From Thermoplasmata archaeon (GTDB lineage Archaea; Thermoplasmatota; Thermoplasmata; Lutacidiplasmatales; UBA184): a stretch of DNA of 44,838 nt. Under the pieces are notes generated by a model. It saw nothing but the letters and a program-made list of their open reading frames with translations. It did no database searches and had not been told where the DNA came from. Shown one piece after another: positions 3,812 through 44,458 of this stretch (positions are counted from its first letter, which is position 1; every line of letters begins with the position of its first letter). The stretch covers positions 1-44,838 of the forward strand of contig JAKAWP010000007.1 of the NCBI GenBank assembly GCA_021816955.1, given 5' to 3'. Position numbers and translations under genes: made by a program.

Positions 3812-5371
3812 TCACGGCGTCAGCCACCGGAGCAGCGGGCCGACCACGTACTTCCAGCGCGGAGCGGAAATCAGGATCGTATCCACCATTTCCGTCGTGA
3901 CGCCCCGGGTCCACCGAAGGAGGACCAGAAAGAGGGCGAGGCCGACGGCTACCCCCGCAACGGCACCCAACGGCCCGGCTCCCGGCACCGCAAGGATCAC
4001 GCCGATCGTGGCGGCCATGGCGACCGACGCCGTCCAGATGGAGAGGAGGGGCCGCCACGCGATCCGAATCAGCCCGGTCCCTCGCAGCCCGAAGTAGAGC
4101 ACGACCAGCGGCACCCATGCCATCGCGGAGTTTCCGATCGCGGCCCCGGTGAAGCTGAAACGCGGGATGAGGACAACCGACAGGGCGATGTTGCTCAAGA
4201 GGGCCAGCGCCGAGGCGTACATCACGAGCGGGGTGCGCCGGATGCCGAAGGCCAGGCTCCCGAGCACGGTGTACGGGATCGCGGCGGCGGTGGCGAGGAG
4301 GAGGATCCTCAGCGGCTCGCTCGCCGAGACGTAGGCGGGCCCGACGAACAGCCCGAGCGCGACCGGCGCCACGGCGCTCAGCAGGAGGGCGGCCGGCACG
4401 TAGACGAGCACCACCAGGGCGATGGAGACCCCGACCACGGAGCGGATCCCCTCCGCATCGTCGCGCCCGAAGAGCGCCGAGAGGCGGGGAACCAGGACGG
4501 TGCCGAACGGGTTGACCAAGTAGGCGGCCGCGCTGGCGGCGAGAATGGCATAGGTGTAGATGCCCACCGCACTGAGGTCTACGAACGCCGCGAGGATGAG
4601 CCGGTCCACGTAGAACGCTCCCGTCCCGAGCAGGCCGGCCACGTAGGCGGGAAGCGAATAGCGGAAGAGTTCCGGGAACATGCGGCCGATACCGGTCGGT
4701 GGTCGGCCGCGGGCCGGCGAGCGCTCGAGGGACGCCGTCTGTCGAAGCACCACCCCGAGGCAGAGGCTCGCGCTGACCGCCATCCCGAGGCTCCACCCGA
4801 CGACGACCGTCACGGGAGTTCCTGGAAACGCCCGGAGAAGGCCGACCGTCCCTCCGTACATCACGATGGTTTGCGCCATGGTGATCGCCGAGAGCGCCAT
4901 GAACCGCTGCAGGCCGGCGAGCAGCGACTGCAGCACGCCGACGGCCATCGATAGGCCGGCGAAGATGGCGAGGAGGTCGAGCAGGGCGGCATAGCTGGCC
5001 GTGTGGAAGAAGAGGCGGCTCCATTCCGCGGCGAACCCGACGAGCAGGACGATCGCGGCCCCGGCCAGCAGGAGCGCAACGCCGAGCGCGAGCCGGGCGA
5101 GCCGGCGCGCCCGGATCGCATCTCCCTTGCCACGATAGTAGGCGAGATAATGCTGGAAGCCGTTTCCGAGCCCCAACGAGGTGAATCCGACGACCACGGT
5201 GGCGATGGCGGCCAGGAGGGAGATCGTTCCAACCTCCGCCGACGAAGCGGTCCGGGCGAGATACAGGTAGAAGAGGCCGCCTCCGAGGGCGAGCGCGACG
5301 GTGCCGGCGTAGATCCAAGGGACGCTCCCGCTCGGAGTGGCAGCGGGATCGGTGGAGAGGGGGTTAGACAA
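3812..5371 (-). CDS. Wzx-type oligosaccharide flippase (MOP superfamily)
   Basis: About 12-14 hydrophobic segments; YLART...EVGTISL, FRYSLP, VDRLIL...AVGIY, LIPRFSFTGAAI patterns; sits among glycosyltransferases. Confidence 0.88.
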   Translation of the reverse strand: MSNPLSTDPAATPSGSVPWIYAGTVALALGGGLFYLYLARTASSAEVGTISLLAAIATVVVGFTSLGLGNGFQHYLAYYRGKGDAIRARRLARLALGVALLLAGAAIVLLVGFAAEWSRLFFHTASYAALLDLLAIFAGLSMAVGVLQSLLAGLQRFMALSAITMAQTIVMYGGTVGLLRAFPGTPVTVVVGWSLGMAVSASLCLGVVLRQTASLERSPARGRPPTGIGRMFPELFRYSLPAYVAGLLGTGAFYVDRLILAAFVDLSAVGIYTYAILAASAAAYLVNPFGTVLVPRLSALFGRDDAEGIRSVVGVSIALVVLVYVPAALLLSAVAPVALGLFVGPAYVSASEPLRILLLATAAAIPYTVLGSLAFGIRRTPLVMYASALALLSNIALSVVLIPRFSFTGAAIGNSAMAWVPLVVLYFGLRGTGLIRIAWRPLLSIWTASVAMAATIGVILAVPGAGPLGAVAGVAVGLALFLVLLRWTRGVTTEMVDTILISAPRWKYVVGPLLRWLTP

Positions 5372-28407: not shown

Positions 28408-28700
28408 ATGCCTCCGCGGCGCACACCCGGCCGACCCCGCCTCGCCATATTGGAAGACAAGGACCTCGCGCGATGGTACACGAACGTCGCCCGGGGCTCT
28501 CCGATCACCGCCGACGTCTATGACCGACGGCTCGCCGCCGTCTGCGAACAGGTCGCCGTTGAGCCCTCCGCCTTACCGGAGCCCACGGAACGAGAGCTCC
28601 GCGACCTCCGGCTCGACGTCATCACCGCCGAGGAAAGGAGGAAACGCCCGGAGTCGTACATCCAAGCTCGGTCAAGGCGGTCAAGTCCTGTCGGGTCCTG
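28408..28700 (+). pseudogene. Site-specific integrase N-terminal remnant
   Basis: LEDKDLARWYTNVARGSPITADVYDRRL...SYI, then VKAVKS in a shifted frame, resembling the N-terminus of Thermoplasmata tRNA-adjacent tyrosine integrases (recalled, not searched); no catalytic domain follows; starts 39 nt after the tRNA. Confidence 0.7.
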
Positions 28701-29295
28701 CGTAAGGCGATTGACCAACGGTGAGGGAAACCGGCGAGAGACGAGGGCGACGCATCCAAAGATCCGGTCGAACTCAGGAGAGCAGAGGTTCTGCTGTCAA
28801 GCGGGCCCGGGTGCAACCCGAGCGCGGATGAACGACGGTGCTCTCCTCGTCTGGGTTCCCGACCGAGGATCGACAAGCACTGGGGTGGCCGTCGGCCAGG
28901 CGCGAGCCTCCGTTGCTTCCAGGGGAGGGATCGGGGCCCAACATCGCAGGATCGCGGCAGACGGTAGAGGTGGCCGGGGTTCCTGGGGGCTTGGGAACGG
29001 ACGAGCGCTGTCGGCACGCGCAACCTCGGCAGACGAACCTGTCCGATTCGACCTCGCCGGCAGGTTCCCCGCCGGGAGGGCCGGACCGACGTTGCGATCC
29101 GGTCTCGGCCGTCAATCGGTGGGCGGGGTCCAATCCCTCCCGACCGACCTTCGTGCATGCGGTACGCGGCCGGAGGGAGGCCCGTACCCGAGAGAATGCG
29201 TCCAATCGAAATCGGATGAACTCGCCTCGTCGGGAGACGGTAGAAGCGCTGTCGGGAGCTCAAAAATATATCACCATCTCGTGCTCGGGTTCCCC

Positions 29296-32200
29296 ATGGC
29301 CCTCACGAGGCGACGCGGGGCTAGGTTGTGGGACGAGAGAAAAGGACACGCGCACCACGCCGTCGTGGTGGGCGTTTTGGGCCTTGCGCTATTGTTGGTT
29401 CTCCCGGCGGGGTCGTGGATCTCCTCTCCGGCGAGTGGGGGCGGGCTGACGCCCCCCGCCGGCGGGCCGGTCTCCTCTTCGTTGTCCCTTTCGATGCTTC
29501 GGTCCGCGCCGCTTGCGCCGGTGGACCTCCAAGCGGCCCATCCATGGACGGTGCCGGTTCGGGTCGGTCCGGCGCCGAGCGCCCCTCTCCTGGTCGATCT
29601 CAGCTTCCCCCCGGCCAACGAGACCCGATTGCTTTCGTTCCTCACGTCGCTGGTCACACCCTCCTCCCCGGCGTACCACCACTACCTCACGCAAACAGAG
29701 TTTGACGCGGAGTTCGGAGGCCCGACGGCGGCGTACACCGCCGCCGAGGCGTACGTCCAGTCATTCGGAGCGACGATCGTTCAGACGATGAGCGATCGCC
29801 TGCTGCTTCCGATCGAAGGTTCTCCCGCAGTCTTGGGGAAGATCTTTCACACCTCGTTCGCGGAGTATCGTGCGGGGCCGAGGACGTATGTCGCTCCCAC
29901 GTCGGTCCCGGAACTTCCGGCACCCCTGGCCGGTTCGATTTCGGGCGTGATCGGCCTGAGCACCTACGGTTCTCTTTCTCTCGCGCCCCTCGTATCGAAG
30001 ACGGCGGTCCTGCCCCGCTCGGCGGTACCGCTGTCCGCGCCGACGAGCGGGCCGGCGCCCGGGTTTTTGCCCCCTCCCACACGCAACGGTACCCAGTACG
30101 AGTACGCGCCCGACTACCAAGTCGCATACAACGAATACAATCTGCTTCGTCAATACGGATATCCGACCAACGTAACGATTGGTGTGGTGCTCTGGGCGGG
30201 AACGAACGCGAGTGGCCAGCCGGTGGCGCCGTACAACCCCTCGGACGTCTATGCGTACTACAACGAGACCCTCCCACCGTATGAACTCCGCCCGGTGTTC
30301 CGACCTCTGCCGCTGCTCGGCGCTCCCCGGCCCGGGCCCAGCGCGCAATGGGACAACACGTCAGCGGCGATAGAGATGACTCTTGATCTTGAGATGGCCG
30401 GGAGCACGGCGCCGGGCGCTCAGATCGTTCCCGTCTACGCTCCTCGCCGGTTCCAAACGGTCGCCGGATCGTTCTATGCCATTTCGGTCCTCCTGAACCC
30501 GAACAGCTCTCAGCCGTACCTGCGCCACCTGGCAGTCGTCACGAATTCTTTCGTCACAACGGACGTCAATTACACGGCATACTACTATGCCGCTCAGGAG
30601 GCCCAAGCCCGCGGCATATCGATCCTTGCCGCCAGTGGGGATGATGGATCGAGCAACGCGAGCCCCAAGCGCGTACCCAACAACTTGGATCTTGTTGGAG
30701 CACCGGCCTCCGCCGCGTGGAACACCTTCGGAACGGTCGCGGTCGGGGGTTCGGTCGATACCCTCTCCAACGATACCACGTCGCCTCTCTATCTCCATCT
30801 CGTGAACCAGACGGTGTGGTTCCAGAACACCTCGGCCGGCCCCTATGGAAGTAGCGGGGGAGTCTCGCACGTCTTTCCGGAACCGATCTGGCAGAAGCAG
30901 AGCCTGGCCAATGGGGTCATCCAATCCACGGGCGAATCGGGACGGGGTGTACCGGATATCTCGGGCTTGGCCAACAACACGCCTATCACCATCACACATT
31001 TTGGGTACTTCTACAAGGCGACCAATGCGAGCGTGCCCGGGGGGAAAATCGTGCCGGAAGCCGGGACAAGTATTGCTTCGCCCCTCCTGGCCGGTGTCTT
31101 CGCGACGATCGACTCGGTACTGACTCGGTTGGGCCAAGGATGGATCGGGTTTCCGGATCCGGTCCTCTATCGCCTCGGGACGGCCCAGTATGCCGCTCCT
31201 CCCTTCGTCCGCGCCGGGCCGTCGCTTCGAGGGTACAACACCTTGGGTTACGGCCCGTCGCAGCTCCCGAACTTGGTGTTCCTCGACGTGAAGTACGGAG
31301 CGAACGCGCTGTACCCGGCCCTCCCCGGCTATGACCTGGTGACGGGTTGGGGCGCGGTCGACGCGTACAACTTGACCGAATATCTCGGGTTATCGTCCCC
31401 GCTGGGTAATTGGGGGACCCTGGGTGGGATTCGGGCGAACGTGACGCTGGCCGGGCTTAATGCGACGACCTCCGCGTTGTCCCCGGGTTCGACCATCCGC
31501 TTCAATGCCAGCGTCGAATTGACGGGGGTGCTGGCGTCCGCGTTGGGGACGCCGTTGTACGACGTGAAGAACCTGGTCCGCTTCTACGCGGAGGGGACGA
31601 GCTGGTTCGCGAACGAGAGCGGTTGGGCGGTGTATCCGTCGCCGCTCACCTACCTGGGCTCCGATCTTCTCTCCACATACAACTTCACCGGCGAGACGAT
31701 TCCGGTCACGTTCCCATTTGCCGTCAGCCTTTCCACGACGCTTGTCCCAGCGAACGGGACCACCCCGGCCGGGCTCGTCTTCCGGTTCGACAACCAGTCC
31801 GTGACGCTACCGGTCCCTGGGGCCTCGTATTTCATTGGGAGCGGGAATTGGACCTATTGGTGGGGAGGAAGCCAAGTCCCAGCCCCGACCTCTCTTGCGC
31901 CGGAATTCACCCTGACCGCAGGCACGGTCGGCGGGACCGCGTTCTTCGGTCCCCCGACGGCCGGTCGTGTCTCTCTGGCGGTCCAGCCGAGCGGATCGAC
32001 GCAGTACCTTCCGGCGAATGTATCGGTGATCAGCGCGACGAGCCCTGCCCAGGAGTCCGCGGTCAACCTTTCTTGGACAGCTCTCCCCGGGGGCAACGCC
32101 ACATTCGGTTATGCCGCGGGTGGCAGCGACCAAGGGGTTCAGTTCACGGAGCCAACGGGCGTCTACCCGCTTCGGATCCAGCTGTTCCAGCATCCGGCGT

Positions 32201-33135
32201 ACCTGCGCTGGACCGCTGACGTCGTGAGCGTGAAACCGAATCTGGTCGAAACCACCACGGGGAGTGACATCGTCTTCCTCTTGCCGAACGGTACCTATCT
32301 CCTCTCGTTTTCGAACGCCGGCGAAGAGGGCACTGTCGTCGCGGGACCTTTAGGGAAGTACCTACAGGCGACCATCGACGGCGTCGGGGTGTCGTACATC
32401 GTTACTTTCGTGGGCCCTACGGCCGCGGTTGCGTTCGACGAGAGCGGCTTGCCCGCGAACCTGACGTGGGGCATCCGTTTCACGACGAGTTTGCCCTCCC
32501 TAAACTACACGCAAACCTTGAACAAGACCTTGCGGACAACGGGAGGCCCGGCCACCCTTCAATTCCCGCTCTTTATCCCCACGATGCCCGCCTTCCTGCC
32601 TATCCTCTACACGTATCGAATCTCGGACATTCCCGGCTGGCACCAGACCGGAGTGCCGTACGAAGGGCGGCTCGCTGTGCCGCTGAACTCGAGTCTCATC
32701 ACCGTGTCGTTGATGTACCATCCCGTCACCTACGCCATCACATTTAGGGAATCGGGTCTTCCGACGGGAACGATTTGGCTGGCCGCGATCGGGGGCGGCG
32801 GCCCGGCCGCTTCCGGCACCTCGTCGACGCTCGTCCTGGCGGAGGGAAACGGCTCGTACGGGTTTGTCGTCGGGTCCTCCGGAGGGTACGCGGCCGAGCC
32901 CGGGGCGGGAAGCATCACGGTACAGGGAGCCAACGTGACGGTTCTGATCGCCTTCTCGGCGCCCCCCTCTCCCACGGCGTCGTCCGGGTTCCTCGGCCTG
33001 CCGGGAAACAGCGGGTACGTGGTCTTGGGCGGGGCGATGGTGGTGGTCGCCGTGGCGGCCGTCGCGCTGCTCCGTCGGCGTCCACGGACGCCCCGCGCCG
33101 GGACCGGGGACGGAGTTTCCCCGATGAACCGCTAG
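29296..33135 (+). CDS. Secreted, membrane-anchored S53 (sedolisin/kumamolisin) protease with long C-terminal extension
   Basis: Signal-like N-terminus; pro-domain (SPAYHHYLT..EF..EFG); EMTLD (E-x3-D), AASGDDG, RGVPDIS, GTSIASP, GYDLVTGWG; ESGLP repeats; C-terminal TM plus RRRPR; AAAAATATAT about 25 nt before ATG 29296. Confidence 0.92.
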   Translation: MALTRRRGARLWDERKGHAHHAVVVGVLGLALLLVLPAGSWISSPASGGGLTPPAGGPVSSSLSLSMLRSAPLAPVDLQAAHPWTVPVRVGPAPSAPLLVDLSFPPANETRLLSFLTSLVTPSSPAYHHYLTQTEFDAEFGGPTAAYTAAEAYVQSFGATIVQTMSDRLLLPIEGSPAVLGKIFHTSFAEYRAGPRTYVAPTSVPELPAPLAGSISGVIGLSTYGSLSLAPLVSKTAVLPRSAVPLSAPTSGPAPGFLPPPTRNGTQYEYAPDYQVAYNEYNLLRQYGYPTNVTIGVVLWAGTNASGQPVAPYNPSDVYAYYNETLPPYELRPVFRPLPLLGAPRPGPSAQWDNTSAAIEMTLDLEMAGSTAPGAQIVPVYAPRRFQTVAGSFYAISVLLNPNSSQPYLRHLAVVTNSFVTTDVNYTAYYYAAQEAQARGISILAASGDDGSSNASPKRVPNNLDLVGAPASAAWNTFGTVAVGGSVDTLSNDTTSPLYLHLVNQTVWFQNTSAGPYGSSGGVSHVFPEPIWQKQSLANGVIQSTGESGRGVPDISGLANNTPITITHFGYFYKATNASVPGGKIVPEAGTSIASPLLAGVFATIDSVLTRLGQGWIGFPDPVLYRLGTAQYAAPPFVRAGPSLRGYNTLGYGPSQLPNLVFLDVKYGANALYPALPGYDLVTGWGAVDAYNLTEYLGLSSPLGNWGTLGGIRANVTLAGLNATTSALSPGSTIRFNASVELTGVLASALGTPLYDVKNLVRFYAEGTSWFANESGWAVYPSPLTYLGSDLLSTYNFTGETIPVTFPFAVSLSTTLVPANGTTPAGLVFRFDNQSVTLPVPGASYFIGSGNWTYWWGGSQVPAPTSLAPEFTLTAGTVGGTAFFGPPTAGRVSLAVQPSGSTQYLPANVSVISATSPAQESAVNLSWTALPGGNATFGYAAGGSDQGVQFTEPTGVYPLRIQLFQHPAYLRWTADVVSVKPNLVETTTGSDIVFLLPNGTYLLSFSNAGEEGTVVAGPLGKYLQATIDGVGVSYIVTFVGPTAAVAFDESGLPANLTWGIRFTTSLPSLNYTQTLNKTLRTTGGPATLQFPLFIPTMPAFLPILYTYRISDIPGWHQTGVPYEGRLAVPLNSSLITVSLMYHPVTYAITFRESGLPTGTIWLAAIGGGGPAASGTSSTLVLAEGNGSYGFVVGSSGGYAAEPGAGSITVQGANVTVLIAFSAPPSPTASSGFLGLPGNSGYVVLGGAMVVVAVAAVALLRRRPRTPRAGTGDGVSPMNR

Positions 33136-33441: not shown

Positions 33442-34854
33442 CAGTGCTTGGCAACCGGCCGCCTGACGTGACTTGCTGAGTTCTCGGGGGGTGCGGCATA
33501 CTCCCTTCCGATGGAGATTCCTGTTGAAGAGGGAAGCACCGCGGACGACTCGGTGTGTACCCCAGACGCCGCGGCGGCGGTCTTGCGACCGCAGCGAAGG
33601 GAGCTCGTCACCGAAAGAAATACTCGCCGCCTCGTCGGACCCGCTGGAAACCGCGAGTCCTCTCGGACCGACAGGTCCGCTCGGCCGCCCTCTTCTGGCT
33701 CCTCCCGCTCCTGAAGAGTGCCCTCTGTCGAACCTTCCGCCCACCCACGGTGCGCGACACGGCCGACCTACTGCTGAGGGCCGCCGTCCTCCGCGCCTCC
33801 GTCCATCGAGCCCGGGCCCAGAGTCGACGGGGACACTCCGACCGCACCGCCCGATGGCTCTTCGCTCACCTCAGTCTCGGGCGGACCCAACGGGCCCTGA
33901 CCTTCATGCTCCGCCGCCCGATCCGTGGCCGCGTCCCGAAGGACCCGGTCGATGTCGCCATCGACTTCCACGACCGACCGTACTACGGCCCGCCTCAGGA
34001 TGCGCGTCGGCGCCAAGTGGTGAAGACGAAGGAGGAGCGGGGCACCCACCGGGCCCACCGCTTCGCTTCCCTCTCGATCCTCCTGCCTCGCTTCCGTCTC
34101 ATCGCCTCGCTGCGGTTCCACCCGAGGAACGGCGGCACCCTCACCGCCGTTCGTGCCGCCCTCCACGACTTCCAGATGGCAGGCGGGAAGCTCCGCGCCG
34201 TCTTCCTCGACCGGGGGTTCTACAACTATGTCGTCCTCTCGTGGTTGAAGGCTCCGGGGATCACCGCGGTCGTCCCCCTCCGCCTCGGCTCCCGCCAGCG
34301 CAAGAAGTGGGAGCGCGGGAAGCGCTCCTACTCGACCACCCACACGCTGAAGGGCCCCCGCCGAGGAGATCCTCCTCTGGAAGTGACGATCCATGTTGTC
34401 GTCCGCTACCAGATGGGTCGGAAGTGGGACCGCCACGGCAGTCAGTACCTGATCTACGCCGTGCTCGGCGACAGGTCGCTGAAGGAGGTGGCCGACCGCT
34501 ATCGGGGGCGCTTCGGCATCGAGTCTAGCTACAGAATTCTCGGCCAGGCAATGGCCCGCACGTCAAGCCGCTCCCCGGCGCTGCGCCTCCTCCAGGTCGG
34601 GGTGGGAATGCTCCTCCAGAACGAATGGGTCATCCTCAAGCTGCTCTACGCGAGCGAAGGTCGGCAGGGTCCGGTCGGGTTCCGCATCCGCGAGGAACTC
34701 CTCCGCTTCGAGGATCTCCTCCAGATGCTGCTGCGGGCCGTCGGGTATCGCCTCGGGAACGTCTGCGCGGTGGAGAATCGACGGAGACTACCGACTCGCC
34801 TTCGTCGGCAGGGACTTACGTTGCTCTGACGGAGGTGGTCATTGCCAAGTACTG
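33442..34854 (+). mobile_element. ISH3-family insertion sequence
   Basis: Terminal inverted repeats CAGTGCTTGGCAA (33442-33454) and TTGCCAAGTACTG (34842-34854), 12 of 13 matching, around one transposase. Confidence 0.85.
33555..34829 (+). CDS. ISH3-family DDE transposase, apparently intact
   Basis: VAIDFHDRPYYG, GT......FASL, FLDRGFY, YRGRFGIESSYR, ARTSSRSPALR. Confidence 0.88.
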   Translation: MYPRRRGGGLATAAKGARHRKKYSPPRRTRWKPRVLSDRQVRSAALFWLLPLLKSALCRTFRPPTVRDTADLLLRAAVLRASVHRARAQSRRGHSDRTARWLFAHLSLGRTQRALTFMLRRPIRGRVPKDPVDVAIDFHDRPYYGPPQDARRRQVVKTKEERGTHRAHRFASLSILLPRFRLIASLRFHPRNGGTLTAVRAALHDFQMAGGKLRAVFLDRGFYNYVVLSWLKAPGITAVVPLRLGSRQRKKWERGKRSYSTTHTLKGPRRGDPPLEVTIHVVVRYQMGRKWDRHGSQYLIYAVLGDRSLKEVADRYRGRFGIESSYRILGQAMARTSSRSPALRLLQVGVGMLLQNEWVILKLLYASEGRQGPVGFRIREELLRFEDLLQMLLRAVGYRLGNVCAVENRRRLPTRLRRQGLTLL

Positions 34855-35360
34855 GAATCGCTCTCGCGCATCCGCATGGACTTCCGCAAGTCCGGCTTCT
34901 CAAGCTGCTTTGGCTCGCCGAACTCAAGTACTACGAGCGGACCGGAAGGAGGCTGACGCGGGCAAAGTGGTGGCGGTGGAACTACGGCCCTTACAGCAAG
35001 GACGCGATCAATACCGTGAAGCGGGACACGAAGACCTTCCGGGTCGAGCGGCAGCAGGATGAGAGCTGGCAAACTGGCCGTGTCATTCATGCGAATCCCC
35101 GGGCGGTGAAGGGGCCCTCCGACCGCGAGGGGCTTCGGGCCATCGACGACGTCCTGGCGACGTACGGAGAGTACACGAACGAGGAGCTGGTTCAGGAAGT
35201 CTACGCCGACCCGTTCTTCGAGGCGACGCCGTTCAGCGCCGACTTCGACTTTGCGAAGCTGACCGACTACCGTCGAACTCTGCCGGAGTCCGAAGAACGA
35301 CGGCTGCTCGAACTCCCGACCAAACCCGTAGCCACCCTCGCCGAGCTGTTCGCTCCCTAG
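34842..35360 (+). CDS. Panacea (DUF4065/SocA-like) antitoxin, 5' end replaced by the IS end
   Basis: LLKLLWLAELKYYERTGRRLT.......YGPYS core; VLATYG......LVQEVY...F; TTG start lies inside the IS terminal repeat. Confidence 0.8.
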   Translation: MPSTGIALAHPHGLPQVRLLKLLWLAELKYYERTGRRLTRAKWWRWNYGPYSKDAINTVKRDTKTFRVERQQDESWQTGRVIHANPRAVKGPSDREGLRAIDDVLATYGEYTNEELVQEVYADPFFEATPFSADFDFAKLTDYRRTLPESEERRLLELPTKPVATLAELFAP

Positions 35361-39091: not shown

Positions 39092-40276
39092 CTACCGCGC
39101 TCGGTCTCCGCCAATCTCCGCCGTTGGGCGGGGCAACGGTTCTTCGGGAGAGACGCGGGATGCCCGAAGGCGATCCGGCTCTTCCCCGGGCGCCCGGGGG
39201 GCCGAATGCGATCCCAGGTAACGGGCAATGGTCACCAATCCGAGAAGGACCGGGACCTCCACGAGCGGTCCGACCGTCGCGGCGAGGGCGACGGTCGAGG
39301 TGATGCCGAACACCGCGACCGCGACGGTGATCGCGAGTTCGAAGTTGTTGCTGGCCGCGGTGAGCGACAGCGCAGCGTTTTCTGGGTACTCCGCCCGAGC
39401 CCAGCGGCCGAGGCCGAAGCTCAGGAAGAACATCACGACGAAGTACGCGACCAGCGGAACAGCGACCAGCACGACCTCCACGGGCGACGCGAGGATCGCG
39501 GAACTCTGGAACGCAAACAGCAGGACGATCGTGTAGAGGAGGGCGCCGAGCGACACGGGCGCGAGCGCCGGTCCGATCCGCCCATCGAGGTCGGCGAGCC
39601 GTCCGGCCGTTCGATGCGCCCACCGGGTCAAAACCCCGGCGGCGAACGGCAGCCCGAGGAATACCACTACGCTGTACGCGACGAGCGCCGGTGACACCGG
39701 GACCGGGAGGGCGGGCGCGCCGGCCGCCGGCAGAAATATCGTCACGAACGTGTAGACGTAGATCCCGTAGAACGCGACCTGGAAGAGGCTGTTGAACGCC
39801 ACCAATCCGGCCGCGTACTCTCGGCTGCCGCCCGCGAGTTCGTTCCAGACGAGGACCATCGCAATGCATCGGGCGCTTCCGATGAGCACGAGGCCGACGA
39901 GGAGCTCGGGATACCCGCGGAGCAGCAGGAGCCCGAGTCCGAGCATGACGAACGGGCCGACCCCCCAGTTGAGGAGGAGGGAGAGGGCGAGGAGCCGGGT
40001 GTTCCGGAAGACCCGCGGAAGCTCATCGTAACGAACCCGTACCAGCGGAGGGTACATCATCAACACCAAGCCCGCTCCGATCGCGGCGGGGACGGGAGTG
40101 CCCGGCAGATCCCAACCTCCGATGGCTCCGACAATCGAGGCGGGTGCCAGACGCCCGAACGCCAGTCCGCCGACCATCGCCGCGGCGATCCAGAGGGGGA
40201 GGAATCGGTCCCCGGCGGCGAGGGTTCTTCGGGTCGGGCACGGATCGTTCTCCGAGCCTTCGGGACCGTCCGTCAC
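39092..40276 (-). CDS. acr3: Acr3-family arsenite efflux transporter
   Basis: DRFLPLWI, MMYPPL, LNW.VGP, ARCIAMVLVWN, NSLFQ, SNNFELAI, VGPLVEVPV. Confidence 0.95.
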   Translation of the reverse strand: MTDGPEGSENDPCPTRRTLAAGDRFLPLWIAAAMVGGLAFGRLAPASIVGAIGGWDLPGTPVPAAIGAGLVLMMYPPLVRVRYDELPRVFRNTRLLALSLLLNWGVGPFVMLGLGLLLLRGYPELLVGLVLIGSARCIAMVLVWNELAGGSREYAAGLVAFNSLFQVAFYGIYVYTFVTIFLPAAGAPALPVPVSPALVAYSVVVFLGLPFAAGVLTRWAHRTAGRLADLDGRIGPALAPVSLGALLYTIVLLFAFQSSAILASPVEVVLVAVPLVAYFVVMFFLSFGLGRWARAEYPENAALSLTAASNNFELAITVAVAVFGITSTVALAATVGPLVEVPVLLGLVTIARYLGSHSAPRAPGEEPDRLRASRVSPEEPLPRPTAEIGGDRAR

Positions 40277-40749
40277 CTTCGTGGTCCGTCGTCCGTTCCC
40301 GGCCGTTCGCCGGAGAGCTCGCCGACGAGGCGGACGACCCGCCGACGGATCTCGTCACGAACTTCGCGGAATCCGGCGTCCGTCAATGGCGCCGGATCCG
40401 GCAATCCCCAATCGATCGTCTTCTCCCGGCGAAGGAAGCGCGGACAGCTCGCGTCGTCCAAGCAGCCCATGGTGATGATCAGGTCGGCCCGCTCGACGAG
40501 CGACGGCGTGAGAAGCTGCGGAGGATGGGGTGGGAGGCGGTAGCCGATCTCCTCGAGAACCGGTCCGGTGCGCGGATTCGGCTGGGCCGCGGGCTGGGTG
40601 CCAGCGCTCTCCGCCCTCCAGCCGGGGGGCGCCTCATGATTGAAGATCGCCTCGGCGATGAGGGAGCGGGCCGAGTTCTGGACACAAACGAACAGGACGA
40701 CTCCGGAAGCCCCGACCTTCTTTGCCGGGCGGAGGGAAGCCGACGTCAT
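40273..40749 (-). CDS. arsC: Arsenate reductase ArsC (LMW-PTP fold)
   Basis: P-loop FVCVQNSARS (C-x5-R), SAGT, TMGC.....CP resolving Cys pair, DWGLPDP; GTGA overlap with acr3. Confidence 0.92.
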   Translation of the reverse strand: MTSASLRPAKKVGASGVVLFVCVQNSARSLIAEAIFNHEAPPGWRAESAGTQPAAQPNPRTGPVLEEIGYRLPPHPPQLLTPSLVERADLIITMGCLDDASCPRFLRREKTIDWGLPDPAPLTDAGFREVRDEIRRRVVRLVGELSGERPGTDDGPRR

Positions 40750-41097
40750 CCGTGCCCCCTTCGTACGCCCTTCCGAGCGGAATCGACTCGGCGGATCGCC
40801 GGACGATCCTTGGGAGGTCGGTCCTCGACGCACGCAAGGAGGAGGTGACCTCCTCCTCCGTCCGGGGCGTCCCGGAACGGTTGGGTACCAACCCTCTCCT
40901 CCATTCCGCGCGCCAATCGTCCCTGCCGATGGTCGGCCGCCTGCTGGAAACGGACCGCCCTGGTTTTGGAATGCGTCGGCCCACCCCGGGCCGCCCGGTC
41001 CCGATCGTGCGTCGAGAGCTGAGTCGTCATGCCCCGGCCGACCGATCGCTCCAACGATTGAACTGATATGAACCCCGACTCTCTCGCTACGTAGGAA

Positions 41098-41436
41098 ATG
41101 GGGCCCTCGGAAACCCTCGAGTGTCCGTGCCCGCCCGCCGGAGCGATCGACATTGCCGGCAAGAAGTGGGCGGTCTGCGTCGTCACCTTGCTTGGACGAC
41201 ATGGTCGGCTTCGGTTCTCCGAGCTCCAACGCGGGTTGCCGAACGTCACCCCCGGCACCCTCGTCGCCACGCTCCGGGAACTCGAACTCCACCGGTGGAT
41301 CTCCCCGGAGGTCGTGGACTCCGACCGGCGCGGGCGGAGGTATCGGCTGACCGCGGAGGGAAGCCAACTCTACCAGTCGTTGCTGCCGTTGGCCCGTTCG
41401 CTTCGACGACCGGACGCCGAACTCCGCGCGCTCTGA
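41098..41436 (+). CDS. HxlR-family winged-helix regulator, Cys-rich N-terminus
   Basis: CPCP...AIDIAGKKW, LRFSELQRGLP.VT...L...LRELE, YRLTAEG..L. Confidence 0.88.
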   Translation: MGPSETLECPCPPAGAIDIAGKKWAVCVVTLLGRHGRLRFSELQRGLPNVTPGTLVATLRELELHRWISPEVVDSDRRGRRYRLTAEGSQLYQSLLPLARSLRRPDAELRAL

Positions 41437-41549: not shown

Positions 41550-42119
41550 TCACAACCGGGAGACCGCCCCTCGGTGCCGGCGATAATGCCGGGCGACGCG
41601 CACTCGGTTTCCGCACCCGGTCGGAGAGCACCAACGCTGCGACGGGCGGACCGAGAAGAGGTAGTGGCCGCACCCCGGAGCCCCGCACCGCCGCAGACGA
41701 GAGCGGGCCGGTCCGCCGAGCAGGGTCACCGCCGTGCGGGCGAGATCGCTCCAGATAACCGCCGTCGGTGCCCGCGCCGGCGTCACGGCCAACGACCAGC
41801 CCCCGCGGTCCGTGTAGCGCAGGGTCGGGATCTTCGGTCGACGCCGGGCGAGCGCGTTGATCGATCGAAGGTCGGTGGGGTTCGGCGCGCGGTGGTCGAC
41901 GGCCGCTTGGAAGAGCCGGTCGAACAGACCGCGAAGGCGTCGGGCCGACCGTGCGACCTTCGGGCTCACTCTCCCCGCTCGCGTCCGCGGAACGAATCGG
42001 AGGGCGGGCGGGATCCGCCCGCGAGCCGCGAGGCCGTCGCCCGCTCGGCAGGCGGGGCACGGCGAGGTGTTGACGAAGTCGATCAACGTTCGGATCCGAC
42101 CGTCAGAATCTAATGGCAT
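41550..42119 (-). CDS. ABATE / CGNR zinc-finger domain protein
   Basis: LIDFVNT at the N-terminus; RLRRCGAPGC...F......RWCSPTGCGNRVRVARH; start ATG 42119. Confidence 0.9.
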   Translation of the reverse strand: MPLDSDGRIRTLIDFVNTSPCPACRAGDGLAARGRIPPALRFVPRTRAGRVSPKVARSARRLRGLFDRLFQAAVDHRAPNPTDLRSINALARRRPKIPTLRYTDRGGWSLAVTPARAPTAVIWSDLARTAVTLLGGPARSRLRRCGAPGCGHYLFSVRPSQRWCSPTGCGNRVRVARHYRRHRGAVSRL

Positions 42120-42139
42120 ACTGTCAGTTGTGCCATTAG
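42110..42139. promoter_or_regulatory. Candidate operator: perfect 9-bp inverted repeat with 12-nt spacer
   Basis: CTAATGGCA-tactgtcagttg-TGCCATTAG, AT-rich in a GC-rich background, overlapping the CGNR gene start codon. Confidence 0.7.
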
Positions 42140-42145
42140 CCTCCG

Positions 42146-42153
42146 TTATATAG
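42146..42153. promoter_or_regulatory. Shared bidirectional TATA box
   Basis: TTATATAG (reverse CTATATAA), centred about 28 nt from ATG 42177 (+) and about 30 nt from ATG 42119 (-). Confidence 0.7.
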
Positions 42154-42176
42154 ACTCTCGGCGTCCACCGGCCGAC

Positions 42177-42323
42177 ATGACGAAGGAGCGAGACCCGATC
42201 TGCGGGATGTCGGTGGAATCGACGACGGCGAAGTGGCACGTGCGCGAGGCCGACCGGACGGTCTACTTCTGTTCGGAAGGGTGCCTCCGCGCGTACTCCC
42301 AGCGGGCGGCTCCCTCCCGGTAG
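42177..42323 (+). CDS. 48-aa YHS/TRASH-domain protein (CopM-like metallochaperone), absent from the ORF track
   Basis: Hand translation MTKERDPICGMSVESTTAKWHVREADRTVYFCSEGCLRAYSQRAAPSR*: DPxCGM...YFCSxxC. Confidence 0.88.
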   Translation: MTKERDPICGMSVESTTAKWHVREADRTVYFCSEGCLRAYSQRAAPSR

Positions 42324-42352
42324 GCGGCGGTCCGCCGGCCCCGCCCCGTGCC

Positions 42353-44458
42353 ATGGCGACCGATCCCGTGTGCGGCATGTACGTGGCGGAAGGCCCAGAG
42401 GCGCTTCGCCTCGTCCGGGGCACCCGTACGTATCTGTTCTGCTCGACGGCCTGCCGACGAACGTTCGACAACCCGGAACAGGAACGCCGGTCGCTCGGCC
42501 GTCGGCTCGCCTTCGGCCTTCCTGCGACCGCGATAGTCGCCGGCCTCACTTACGGCGTATCCGCTGTCTGGGCGACGGGGATCGTGGCGCTCCTCGCGAC
42601 CGTCGCCCAAGTGTACTTGGGAGCGCCGTTTTACCGCGGGCTCGTCGACGCGCTACGGCACCGAAGAGCCAACATGGACGTCTTGATCGCGGTCGGCACC
42701 ACGGCCGCGTACGCCTACAGCGTGAGCGTCCTCGCGCTGCCGGGCCGCCTACCGCCGGCTTTGTACTTTGACGCATCGACGGCGATCCTCACGTTGATCT
42801 TGGTTGGCAACTACTTGGAGCAGCTCACGCGGACGCACGCCACGGACGCCCTCCGCGCACTGCGAGAGTGGGCCCCGCCGACCGCGCACCGGATCGACGG
42901 CGATCGCACATCGGAGGTGCCGCTCGCCGAGGTGCGGCCGGGGGATCGACTTCTCGTCCCGCCCGGGGAGCGGATACCGGCGGACGGGATCGTCCGCCAG
43001 GGCCGCTCGACCGCCGAAGAGGCGCTCGTGACCGGGGAGAGCCGACCGATCCCGAAAGGCCCGGGAGACCGAGTGCTCGCCGGCAGCGTGAACGGGGAAG
43101 GCGCGCTCGAGATCGAGGCGACCGCGGTCGGGGAAGCGACGTTCCTCGCGCACATCGGCGAGCTCGTCAGCGAGAGCGAACTCAGCCGGATCCCCCTGCA
43201 GGATCGGGCCGACCGGATCGCGGCCGGCTTCGTTCCGTTTGTCCTCACGTTGGCGGTCGTCGCGAGCCTCGGCTGGCTCGCCTTCGGCCGCGCGGCGTTC
43301 CCGATCGCCGTTCTGGTCTTCGTCAGCGTGACGATCATCGCATGTCCGTGCGCCTTCGGCATGGCGACGCCGGCCGCGCTCGTGACCGGCGTCGGACGAG
43401 CCGCGCGGCAAGGGATCCTCTTCCGGGGTCGGGATGCGATCGAACGCGCCGCTCGGGTCGATACCGTGCTGCTCGACAAGACGGGCACGCTTACCGCGGG
43501 CCATGCCCGCCTCGCCGACGTCCTCGTCGAACCCGGACACACCCGGGCCGAAGTGCTCGGGCTCGCGGCCGGTCTCGAGCGGACGTCGACGCATCCGCTC
43601 GCCGACGCGGTCGTGTCGGCCGCCCGGGCCGAATCGATCGCCCCGGTCGAGCTCGCCGAGGTCACCGCGCGACCGGGACTGGGCCTCGAAGGGCGCCTCG
43701 GCTCCGAGATCGTCCGGCTCGTCCGCACCTCCTCCGGCCGAGCCGCGAGCACTCCCGGGGGGTCGATGTCGGCTCGGATCGACCGATGGCTTGCCGAGGG
43801 GGCGACCGTGAGCGTGCTTGAGCGCGGCGACGCGAGAATCGGCGTCCTGGTCTTCCTCGACCCGGTGGCACCCACGGCCCGCGCCGCAGTGGCCGCCTTC
43901 GCCGCGGACGGGCTCGAAGTGACGATGGTGACCGGCGATACGAAGGGCGCGGCGCTCCGGGTCGCCCGGGAGGTCGGCATCGCCTCGGTTCGCTCCGACG
44001 CGACGCCCGACGAGAAGCTCGCCGCGATCCGGGAGCTCCAAGGGAGAGGGCGGACGGTAGCGTTCGTCGGCGACGGCCTCAACGACGCCCCGGCGCTCGC
44101 CGCCGCCGACGTCGGGATCGCGATCGGCACGGGGACGGACGTCGCGAAAGAGGCGGGCCACATCGTGCTCCTCTCTTCGAACCTCGTCGATGCGGCGCTC
44201 GCCCTGCGCATCGCTCGGCGGACGGTCGCCAAAGTTCGGCAGAACCTCCTCTGGGCGCTCGGTTACAACGCGGTCCTCCTCCCGATCGCGGCCGGCCTGC
44301 TCGTCCCGCTCTGGGGGTTCTCGGTCTACGCGGTGCTTCCGATCCTGGGGGCGTTCGCGATGGCGATCAGCTCGACGCTCGTTCTCGTGAACTCGCTTTC
44401 CCTCCGCTGGATCCGCGTGGAGCACCGGAGCCGCTCGAGCGTCCCGTCGGTCGGCTGA
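42353..44458 (+). CDS. copA: Cu(I)-type P1B ATPase with N-terminal TRASH/YHS domain
   Basis: DPVCGM...YLFCSTAC; TGES, CPC, DKTGT, HP, TGD, GDGLNDAPAL, YN and MAISS (P1B-1 signature); start ATG 42353. Confidence 0.93.
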   Translation: MATDPVCGMYVAEGPEALRLVRGTRTYLFCSTACRRTFDNPEQERRSLGRRLAFGLPATAIVAGLTYGVSAVWATGIVALLATVAQVYLGAPFYRGLVDALRHRRANMDVLIAVGTTAAYAYSVSVLALPGRLPPALYFDASTAILTLILVGNYLEQLTRTHATDALRALREWAPPTAHRIDGDRTSEVPLAEVRPGDRLLVPPGERIPADGIVRQGRSTAEEALVTGESRPIPKGPGDRVLAGSVNGEGALEIEATAVGEATFLAHIGELVSESELSRIPLQDRADRIAAGFVPFVLTLAVVASLGWLAFGRAAFPIAVLVFVSVTIIACPCAFGMATPAALVTGVGRAARQGILFRGRDAIERAARVDTVLLDKTGTLTAGHARLADVLVEPGHTRAEVLGLAAGLERTSTHPLADAVVSAARAESIAPVELAEVTARPGLGLEGRLGSEIVRLVRTSSGRAASTPGGSMSARIDRWLAEGATVSVLERGDARIGVLVFLDPVAPTARAAVAAFAADGLEVTMVTGDTKGAALRVAREVGIASVRSDATPDEKLAAIRELQGRGRTVAFVGDGLNDAPALAAADVGIAIGTGTDVAKEAGHIVLLSSNLVDAALALRIARRTVAKVRQNLLWALGYNAVLLPIAAGLLVPLWGFSVYAVLPILGAFAMAISSTLVLVNSLSLRWIRVEHRSRSSVPSVG

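Follow-up and report, generated by a model that had tools for sequence, protein, structure and literature searches.

As a task, the control of copA operons by copper is well understood: the archaeal cases described rely on helix-turn-helix regulators with a TRASH domain, and the bacterial ones on CsoR, CopY or CueR. Whether the same slot can be filled by a protein of the ABATE/CGNR family, for which a structure was solved by crystallography in 2009 but which has no assigned ligand, target or function, is the question raised by the copper locus of a Thermoplasmata archaeon. The window that we analysed is contig C3, a stretch of 44,838 nucleotides (nt) with 68.8% GC, from a 1.42 Mb genome in 82 contigs that is estimated to be 93.5% complete. 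On its plus strand, positions 42177–42323 encode a stand-alone TRASH/YHS protein of 48 residues (copM-like, a putative copper chaperone), and positions 42353–44458 encode copA, a TRASH-fused Cu(I)/Ag(I)-exporting P1B-1 ATPase of 701 residues. Head-to-head with this pair, across a gap of 57 nt (42120–42176), a minus-strand gene (cgnR-like, 41550–42119) encodes a 189-residue protein that consists of an ABATE domain and a CGNR treble-clef zinc finger. A preliminary description of this DNA had proposed that the cgnR-like protein is a new type of copper-responsive regulator. All the elements on which the proposal was built are located as claimed, and each comparative check that was run favours the regulator reading. 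From the comparisons below, the cgnR-like protein is very probably a sequence-specific DNA-binding regulator of copM-copA.

The assignment of the three genes rests on translation and profile matches. In the cgnR-like protein, residues 12–137 match the Pfam ABATE family (4e-14, 53.8 bits against a cut-off of 24.4) and residues 141–182 match zf-CGNR (2.1e-12, 47 bits against a cut-off of 24). We place its start at the ATG at 42117–42119 on the minus strand. A longer reading of 229 residues from a GTG at 42239 was rejected, as it overlaps the neighbouring gene and the homologues align from the ATG at 42119. CopA gives strong matches to the E1-E2 ATPase family (5e-53) and to TIGR01511, the copper P1B-1 model (518.7 bits, cut-off 397), and its translation contains the motifs CPC, N-x6-YN-x4-P and M-x2-SS. 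Its N-terminal YHS/TRASH match (residues 3–43) scores 30.2 bits, just short of the cut-off of 30.3. The CopM-like protein scores 22.2 bits, under the same cut-off. It carries the cysteine pattern C9-x22-C32-x3-C36, and its gene is kept upstream of copA in all relatives.

The region between the two divergent units contains a palindrome, CTAATGGCA-N12-TGCCATTAG (42110–42139), with the core CTAATG-N18-CATTAG. It overlaps the start codon of the regulator gene, and we propose it as the operator. In the whole genome it is the sole match with at most one mismatch; the reversed pattern, used as a control, gives 0. The palindrome is found with at most two mismatches, and always between genes, in 23 of the 24 loci in which the regulator gene is linked to copA. 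The remaining linked locus (L024) has a variant with a spacer of N19, and one other (L025) has a second palindrome nearby.

A comparison within the genus separates the presence of the regulator gene from that of copA. It covered 27 loci, in all of which copA has an N-terminal TRASH match; 26 of them have a small, separate one in addition. The palindrome is present at 5/5 of the loci that have a CGNR gene and at 0/22 of those that do not. One of the five (L118) comes from an unpublished genome (G019), and its site does not differ from the one at the public locus L041; the count without it is 4/4. In two genomes the regulator gene is not linked to the cop genes, which lie elsewhere; there the palindrome immediately precedes copM, with one mismatch at L135 and two at L134. 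Since the palindrome follows the CGNR gene within the genus, in trans and, as described below, in bacteria, it appears to be tied to the regulator protein and not to copA.

Genome-wide searches at no more than one mismatch return a single site in each of G004, G013 and G048, and in each case it lies at cop. Two sites are returned in G005, both at the cop locus, and two in G047, neither of them at cop. The reversed-pattern control at this threshold gives about one site per genome. The second palindrome of G005 (one mismatch; L109, contig C24, 435–1500) lies directly before an open reading frame (ORF) for a membrane protein with a SHOCT motif and an ORF for a 197-residue membrane protein. These two ORFs precede the first copA, and cop genes flank the regulator of G005 on both sides. 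At L036, one of the unlinked regulator genes, a degenerate copy read by eye as CTAACG-N17-CATTAT lies by a TATATAT box upstream of the gene (~4900–4960), which suggests that autoregulation is kept there.

The palindrome is placed close to what looks like the only promoter of the intergenic region. A TATA-like box, TTATATAG, was read from the sequence at 42146–42153, and an A/T-rich octamer adjoins the palindrome in every relative. Archaeal TATA boxes usually lie ~26–27 nt from the transcription start. In the window, the centre of the box is 27.5 nt from the ATG of copM and 30.5 nt from that of the regulator gene. Because these distances fit the usual spacing, both genes are probably transcribed without a leader from one common TATA box, which may thus serve as a bidirectional promoter.

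The layout was analysed for 27 distinct sites, with copM reading rightwards. At 22 of them, the TATA-like box abuts the left arm of the palindrome and the right arm ends 0–2 nt before the ATG of copM. Within this group, the N19 variant of L024 overlaps the ATG by 2 nt. The palindrome of one further site, L134, ends 14 nt before the ATG. At the remaining four sites, those of the window, L041, L043 and L044, the palindrome is 5–8 nt upstream of the TATA box, copM starts 25–30 nt downstream, and the start codon of the regulator gene is at or inside the palindrome. As read from the sequences, the two layouts are mirror images of each other, with one TATA box and the operator to one side of it. A protein bound at the palindrome would be expected to impede TBP/TFB or the polymerase whichever of the two genes is transcribed.

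Is the palindrome a peculiarity of copper loci? We searched 51 bacterial loci of the family (497 kb, 71.5% GC) and obtained 55 matches, of which 17 are perfect, 18 have one mismatch and 20 have two. By a rough estimate from base composition (our own arithmetic), ~0.001 perfect copies would be expected. Nearly all matches (51/55) lie within 700 nt upstream of the N-terminal region of the family gene, and one more is at ~750 nt. At least one palindrome is present at 35 of the 51 loci (L042–L097), and one with no more than one mismatch at 21. The sites begin at ~25 nt and extend to ~750 nt upstream of the genes and are often paired, 34 or 48–59 nt apart. The divergent neighbours, tallied at 20 palindrome-bearing bacterial loci, are diverse: PNPOx-like (eight loci), glyoxalase (four), CMD (two), LysR (two), and HPP, epimerase and MOSC (one each), with one neighbour giving no match. 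As the palindrome stands upstream of bacterial members with unrelated neighbours, the most plausible reading is that the CGNR finger recognises this sequence family-wide, and it looks like the operator of the whole ABATE/CGNR family. No description of such a family-wide operator, CTAATG-N18-CATTAG, was found in the literature searched.

In the loci scanned, the link to copper export is confined to one part of the family. In a first scan, two TRASH matches and a copA (52–58% identity) lie divergent from the homologue at all nine archaeal loci that include upstream DNA; two loci end at a contig edge, and two Ktedonobacteria loci have neither TRASH nor copA. A wider scan covered 80 loci. Of these, 26 encode a protein with a particular CxxC motif and a histidine (see below) and have at least 4.4 kb of upstream DNA, three are at contig ends, and 51 are the bacterial loci, mostly from Actinomycetota, whose proteins have neither feature. 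A divergent TRASH gene followed by a TRASH-copA is found at 24 of the 26 CxxC loci, whereas copA or TRASH occurs within the flanks of 0/51 of the bacterial ones. The recurrence of the head-to-head arrangement in the one set and its absence from the other argue that it is more than chance. At the exceptions, L036 and L039, the regulator gene is found beside GH15, ATP sulfurylase and RNase PH-like genes.

The CxxC motif that marks the copper-linked proteins had been pointed out in the preliminary description as an extra Cys pair directly after the FVNT motif of the ABATE domain, and as the candidate Cu(I) sensor. It is indeed present (FVNTSP-CPAC-RAGD, residues 15–28). Its expected co-occurrence with divergent copM-copA is borne out by the counts above, and it is invariant in the clade. 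The codons of Cys21-Pro-Ala-Cys24 occupy 42048–42059 on the minus strand, and the knuckle lies in the first β-hairpin of the ABATE domain. Its C-P-x-C form resembles that of metal-binding knuckles. A second feature, which had gone unmentioned, accompanies it. The CGNR finger (41613–41687, minus strand) has the zinc ligands Cys145, Cys150, Cys164 and Cys169, with the CGNR motif at residues 169–172, and two residues past Cys150 is a histidine, His152 (codon 41664–41666, minus strand).

The homologue search covered 5.8 billion proteins, and motifs were counted in the 120 best matches. C-x2-C directly after FVNT occurs in 35 of these 120, which make up nearly all of the top-ranked matches, at 31–44% identity. 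The named matches with CxxC include several Thermoplasmata; the remaining named matches among the best 120 are mostly bacterial. In the alignment of the 35 clade members, Cys21, Cys24 and His152 are invariant (35/35), as are N17, R63, P79 and the zinc ligands C145, C150, C164 and C169. In the finger region, H152, Q161, W163, S165, G168, G170, N171, R172, R174, R177 and H178 do not vary. His152 is present in 36/36 CxxC proteins, the window protein included, vs 0/80 non-CxxC proteins with a readable finger; five further proteins, in which the finger could not be read, were left out of this count. His178, by comparison, is common to CxxC and many non-CxxC members.

When 1.84 billion cluster representatives were searched with a profile, 8070 were found to belong to the ABATE/CGNR family at E ≤ 0.001. 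Among the best 150 of them, 48 full-length proteins have both CxxC and His, and none has CxxC but no His. The only entries among these 150 with His but no CxxC are three that are truncated at the N-terminus, and the CxxC is absent from all those outside the clade. In a maximum-likelihood tree of 49 CxxC proteins and 70 others, built with the CxxC/His trait columns still in the alignment, the CxxC group falls on one side of a branch with a Shimodaira–Hasegawa-like approximate likelihood ratio test (SH-aLRT) support of 96. Judged by this tree, the CxxC + His trio has a single origin. When 200 other genomes of the class were sampled, members of the clade turned up only in the GTDB family of the window, in 6 of 23 genomes and two genera. 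None turned up in the 177 sampled genomes of 29 other families.

An AlphaFold2 model computed from the clade alignment has a mean predicted local distance difference test score (pLDDT) of 83.9 and a predicted template modelling score (pTM) of 0.76, with pLDDT of 88–93 for the CxxC hairpin and 91–93 for the finger. The CxxC replaces part of the first β-hairpin of the ABATE domain. A Foldseek search of the PDB returns 3h0n as the sole match at E ≤ 0.001 (E 7e-7, TM score 0.61), in agreement with the sequence-profile search (1.8e-5). This entry is Jann_2411, the type member for the combination of ABATE (PF07336) with zf-CGNR (PF11706). The window protein shares with it the two-domain build and fold, the four-Cys treble-clef finger and the CGNR-type helix. 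According to the part of the structure paper on which we draw (PMC2954205), Jann_2411 is a dimer in solution and holds zinc by four cysteines, Cys147/152/168/172, which match Cys145/150/164/169 of the window protein. Its authors proposed there that the finger binds DNA and that the ABATE domain senses a ligand. The window protein may likewise be dimeric, as fits a palindromic target. Unlike Jann_2411, which has no known ligand, target or function, it has a neighbouring operon and a candidate operator, and it belongs to an archaeal clade with the added CxxC knuckle and the His after the zinc knuckle. The full-text literature that we searched assigns no function, ligand or operator to CGNR/ABATE proteins; besides the 2009 structure paper and reviews of domains of unknown function, it contains passing mentions only.

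Could a regulator of a known type be present elsewhere? The preliminary description had named a canonical CopT/CopR acting on this promoter from another site as evidence against its proposal. In the 93.5%-complete genome, we found no such protein with a helix-turn-helix (HTH) and TRASH, no CsoR and no CopY with a Cys motif. Genome-wide, the YHS/TRASH matches are limited to copM, copA and ribosomal protein L24e, and there is no match to Arc_trans_TRASH. CsoR (PF02583) matches neither the cgnR-like protein nor any other protein of the genome. Two further candidates were rejected. The sole protein of the BlaI/CopY family (contig C35) has no Cys motif, and its gene precedes that of a BlaR1-like HExxH peptidase. 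The second P-type ATPase (contig C64), considered as a metal exporter, is KdpB and lies beside KdpA. In sister species, no known copper regulator was seen to replace the CGNR gene in the divergent slot. At those loci (within L105–L131, palindrome absent), the slot usually holds a rhodanese gene (10 of the 25 ORFs that were scanned), and behind it there is often a gene for a winged-helix protein of ~110 residues (HTH_45; 5 of 25). These genes may represent a different, also undescribed, control of the same cop operon.

We propose the following mechanism for the window protein. It is probably dimeric, and its zinc fingers would recognise CTAATG-N18-CATTAG next to the one TATA box in the divergent promoter of 57 nt. 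Without copper, the occupied site would exclude TBP, TFB and RNA polymerase, and both copM-copA and the regulator's own gene would be repressed. Cu(I), or Ag(I), would bind to the clade-specific Cys21-x2-Cys24 knuckle of the ABATE domain and to His152 of the finger. Metal binding at this Cys2His site would alter how the two domains are placed against one another; the protein would then come off the DNA and the operon would be expressed. That the regulator is in addition a repressor released by copper seems likely to us, though less so than its DNA-binding role. The assignment of Cys21, Cys24 and His152 as the Cu(I) site is more tentative, and we put it only slightly on the favourable side of even.

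Several observations weigh against this proposal. Because the CxxC clade arose only once, the loci counted for co-occurrence do not represent independent events. Sister species that lack the regulator carry the same copM-copA. The gene has a patchy distribution, being present in 5 of the 24 sampled species of the genus, and since most sister species run copM-copA without it, it must be dispensable for cop function. G005 has the regulator, yet a second copA locus in this genome has no palindrome. In G047, the site before copM has two mismatches, when the background already amounts to about one site per genome at one mismatch. Finally, in the window and three relatives, the operator is located upstream of the copM TATA box, a position that would also suit an activator.

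The last point bears on the possibility that the protein is a copper-dependent activator or a dual regulator that stays on the DNA and, when loaded with metal, aids TBP/TFB at copM. The sites of the window, L041, L043 and L044 are indeed where archaeal activators bind, and such a mode of action is reported for the CopR of Saccharolobus and Pyrococcus. HTH-TRASH CopR proteins act as activators in some species according to the cited part of PMC7830388. The layout of most other loci speaks for repression: at 22 of 27 sites the palindrome takes up the space from the TATA box to the ATG of copM, where a bound protein should block initiation. We regard activation as rather improbable. Less probable by far is that the protein is not a cop transcription factor at all, but for instance an RNA-binding zinc-ribbon protein hitch-hiking on a mobile resistance cassette. 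The label that the Joint Genome Institute gives to relatives, 'predicted RNA-binding Zn ribbon-like protein', the patchy distribution within the genus and the nearby transposase and arsenic-resistance genes would all suit such a passenger. However, the palindrome accompanies the gene in archaea and also in bacteria with unrelated neighbours, and it stays with copM where the regulator gene is unlinked. It is found in both orientations relative to the flanking genes, and recognition of DNA rather than RNA therefore fits better.

The alternative that we take most seriously, although we still consider it unlikely, accepts a cop regulator and concerns the nature of its sensor. The CxxC and His, perhaps with His178, could form a second Zn(II) site, structural or regulatory, or a thiol-disulfide switch. 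In that case the protein would detect copper in an indirect way, via oxidative or thiol stress, via metal handed over by CopM or with a different part of its ABATE domain. ABATE domains elsewhere are thought to bind organic ligands, as stated in the cited part of PMC2954205. The invariant His178 could provide a fourth ligand, but it is not specific to the clade, being shared with many members that lack the CxxC. The CP-x-C knuckle itself resembles those of structural zinc sites and rubredoxins. Against this, the clade-specific Cys-Cys-His trio has the same make-up as the three-ligand Cu(I) site usual for CsoR, and the only ATPases to which the clade is linked are of the Cu(I) type.

Returning to the copper-released repressor, the wider claim would be that ABATE/CGNR proteins are a large family of one-component transcription factors that share the operator CTAATG-N18-CATTAG from Actinomycetota to Archaea, and that one family of Thermoplasmata has remodelled the scaffold as a new structural class of Cu(I) sensor, with an added Cys-x2-Cys and His bridging the ligand domain and the zinc finger. 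For this joint claim we see the chances as evenly balanced. The suggestion that the locus gives the ABATE/CGNR family a function holds for the CxxC clade only; for the family at large, the evidence speaks for sequence-specific DNA binding but for no ligand. An operator common to bacterial members had not been part of it. If the joint claim is true, it would provide the first function, the first operator and the first effector for the family, as well as a copper regulator unrelated to every known family of metal sensors. Experiments can address the regulator, the 30-bp operator and the three residues proposed as sensor together. The shared operator also opens the whole family, with its thousands of clusters and its common occurrence in Streptomyces and relatives, to regulon prediction and DNA-binding assays.

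The copper locus is adjoined in the window by an arsenic module (39092–41436). On the minus strand, acr3 (SBF family, 39092–40276) overlaps by 4 nt with an arsC of the low-molecular-weight protein tyrosine phosphatase type (40273–40731). A gene for an HxlR-type winged-helix protein with C-P-C-P-P in its N-terminus (41098–41436, plus strand) faces arsC-acr3 and may encode an As(III)-sensing regulator. We rejected it as the cop regulator, as tblastn finds no homologue in related cop loci and the gene faces the arsenic genes. A DDE transposase gene (33555–34826) and a gene for a SocA/Panacea antitoxin-like protein (34842–35357) precede the metal-resistance genes by ~4 kb, so both the copper and the arsenic genes may belong to an accessory island. 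Further upstream, an ORF of 1575 residues (28408–33132) has as its sole Pfam match a pro-kumamolisin activation domain (residues 389–519). The public sequencing runs that hold DNA of the window (X1–X3) belong to one study and are labelled mine drainage metagenome, a label that suits a metal-resistance locus but is not independent evidence. X1 and X2, the two that contain the locus in full, are DNA runs and may be the source sample; no RNA run was listed among the holders of this DNA.

Among known copper regulators, CsoR (PF02583) comes closest to the proposed logic. It is an apo-repressor that sits on the copA operator and is freed by Cu(I), which it binds with two Cys and one His. Its fold is unrelated to that of the window protein: CsoR is an all-helical tetramer and has no zinc finger. 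The archaeal cop regulators described in the cited part of PMC7830388, Ferroplasma's included, are HTH-TRASH proteins, and according to the same source CopR activates in certain species but represses in Thermococcus onnurineus. These proteins (CopR, CopT or CopY, with an Lrp-type HTH and TRASH, in Saccharolobus, Pyrococcus, Thermococcus, Ferroplasma and Halobacterium) occupy the same slot as the cgnR-like gene, divergent from or adjacent to the chaperone gene and copA, and presumably serve the same task. Autoregulation from a shared promoter is a further likely similarity (PMC7830388, in the part cited). The means differ throughout. In Pfam and NCBIfam scans the window protein has neither an HTH nor a TRASH domain; it would bind a discrete 30-bp palindrome instead of wrapping extended DNA as an Lrp-type octamer; and its sensor would be a Cys2His site rather than TRASH.

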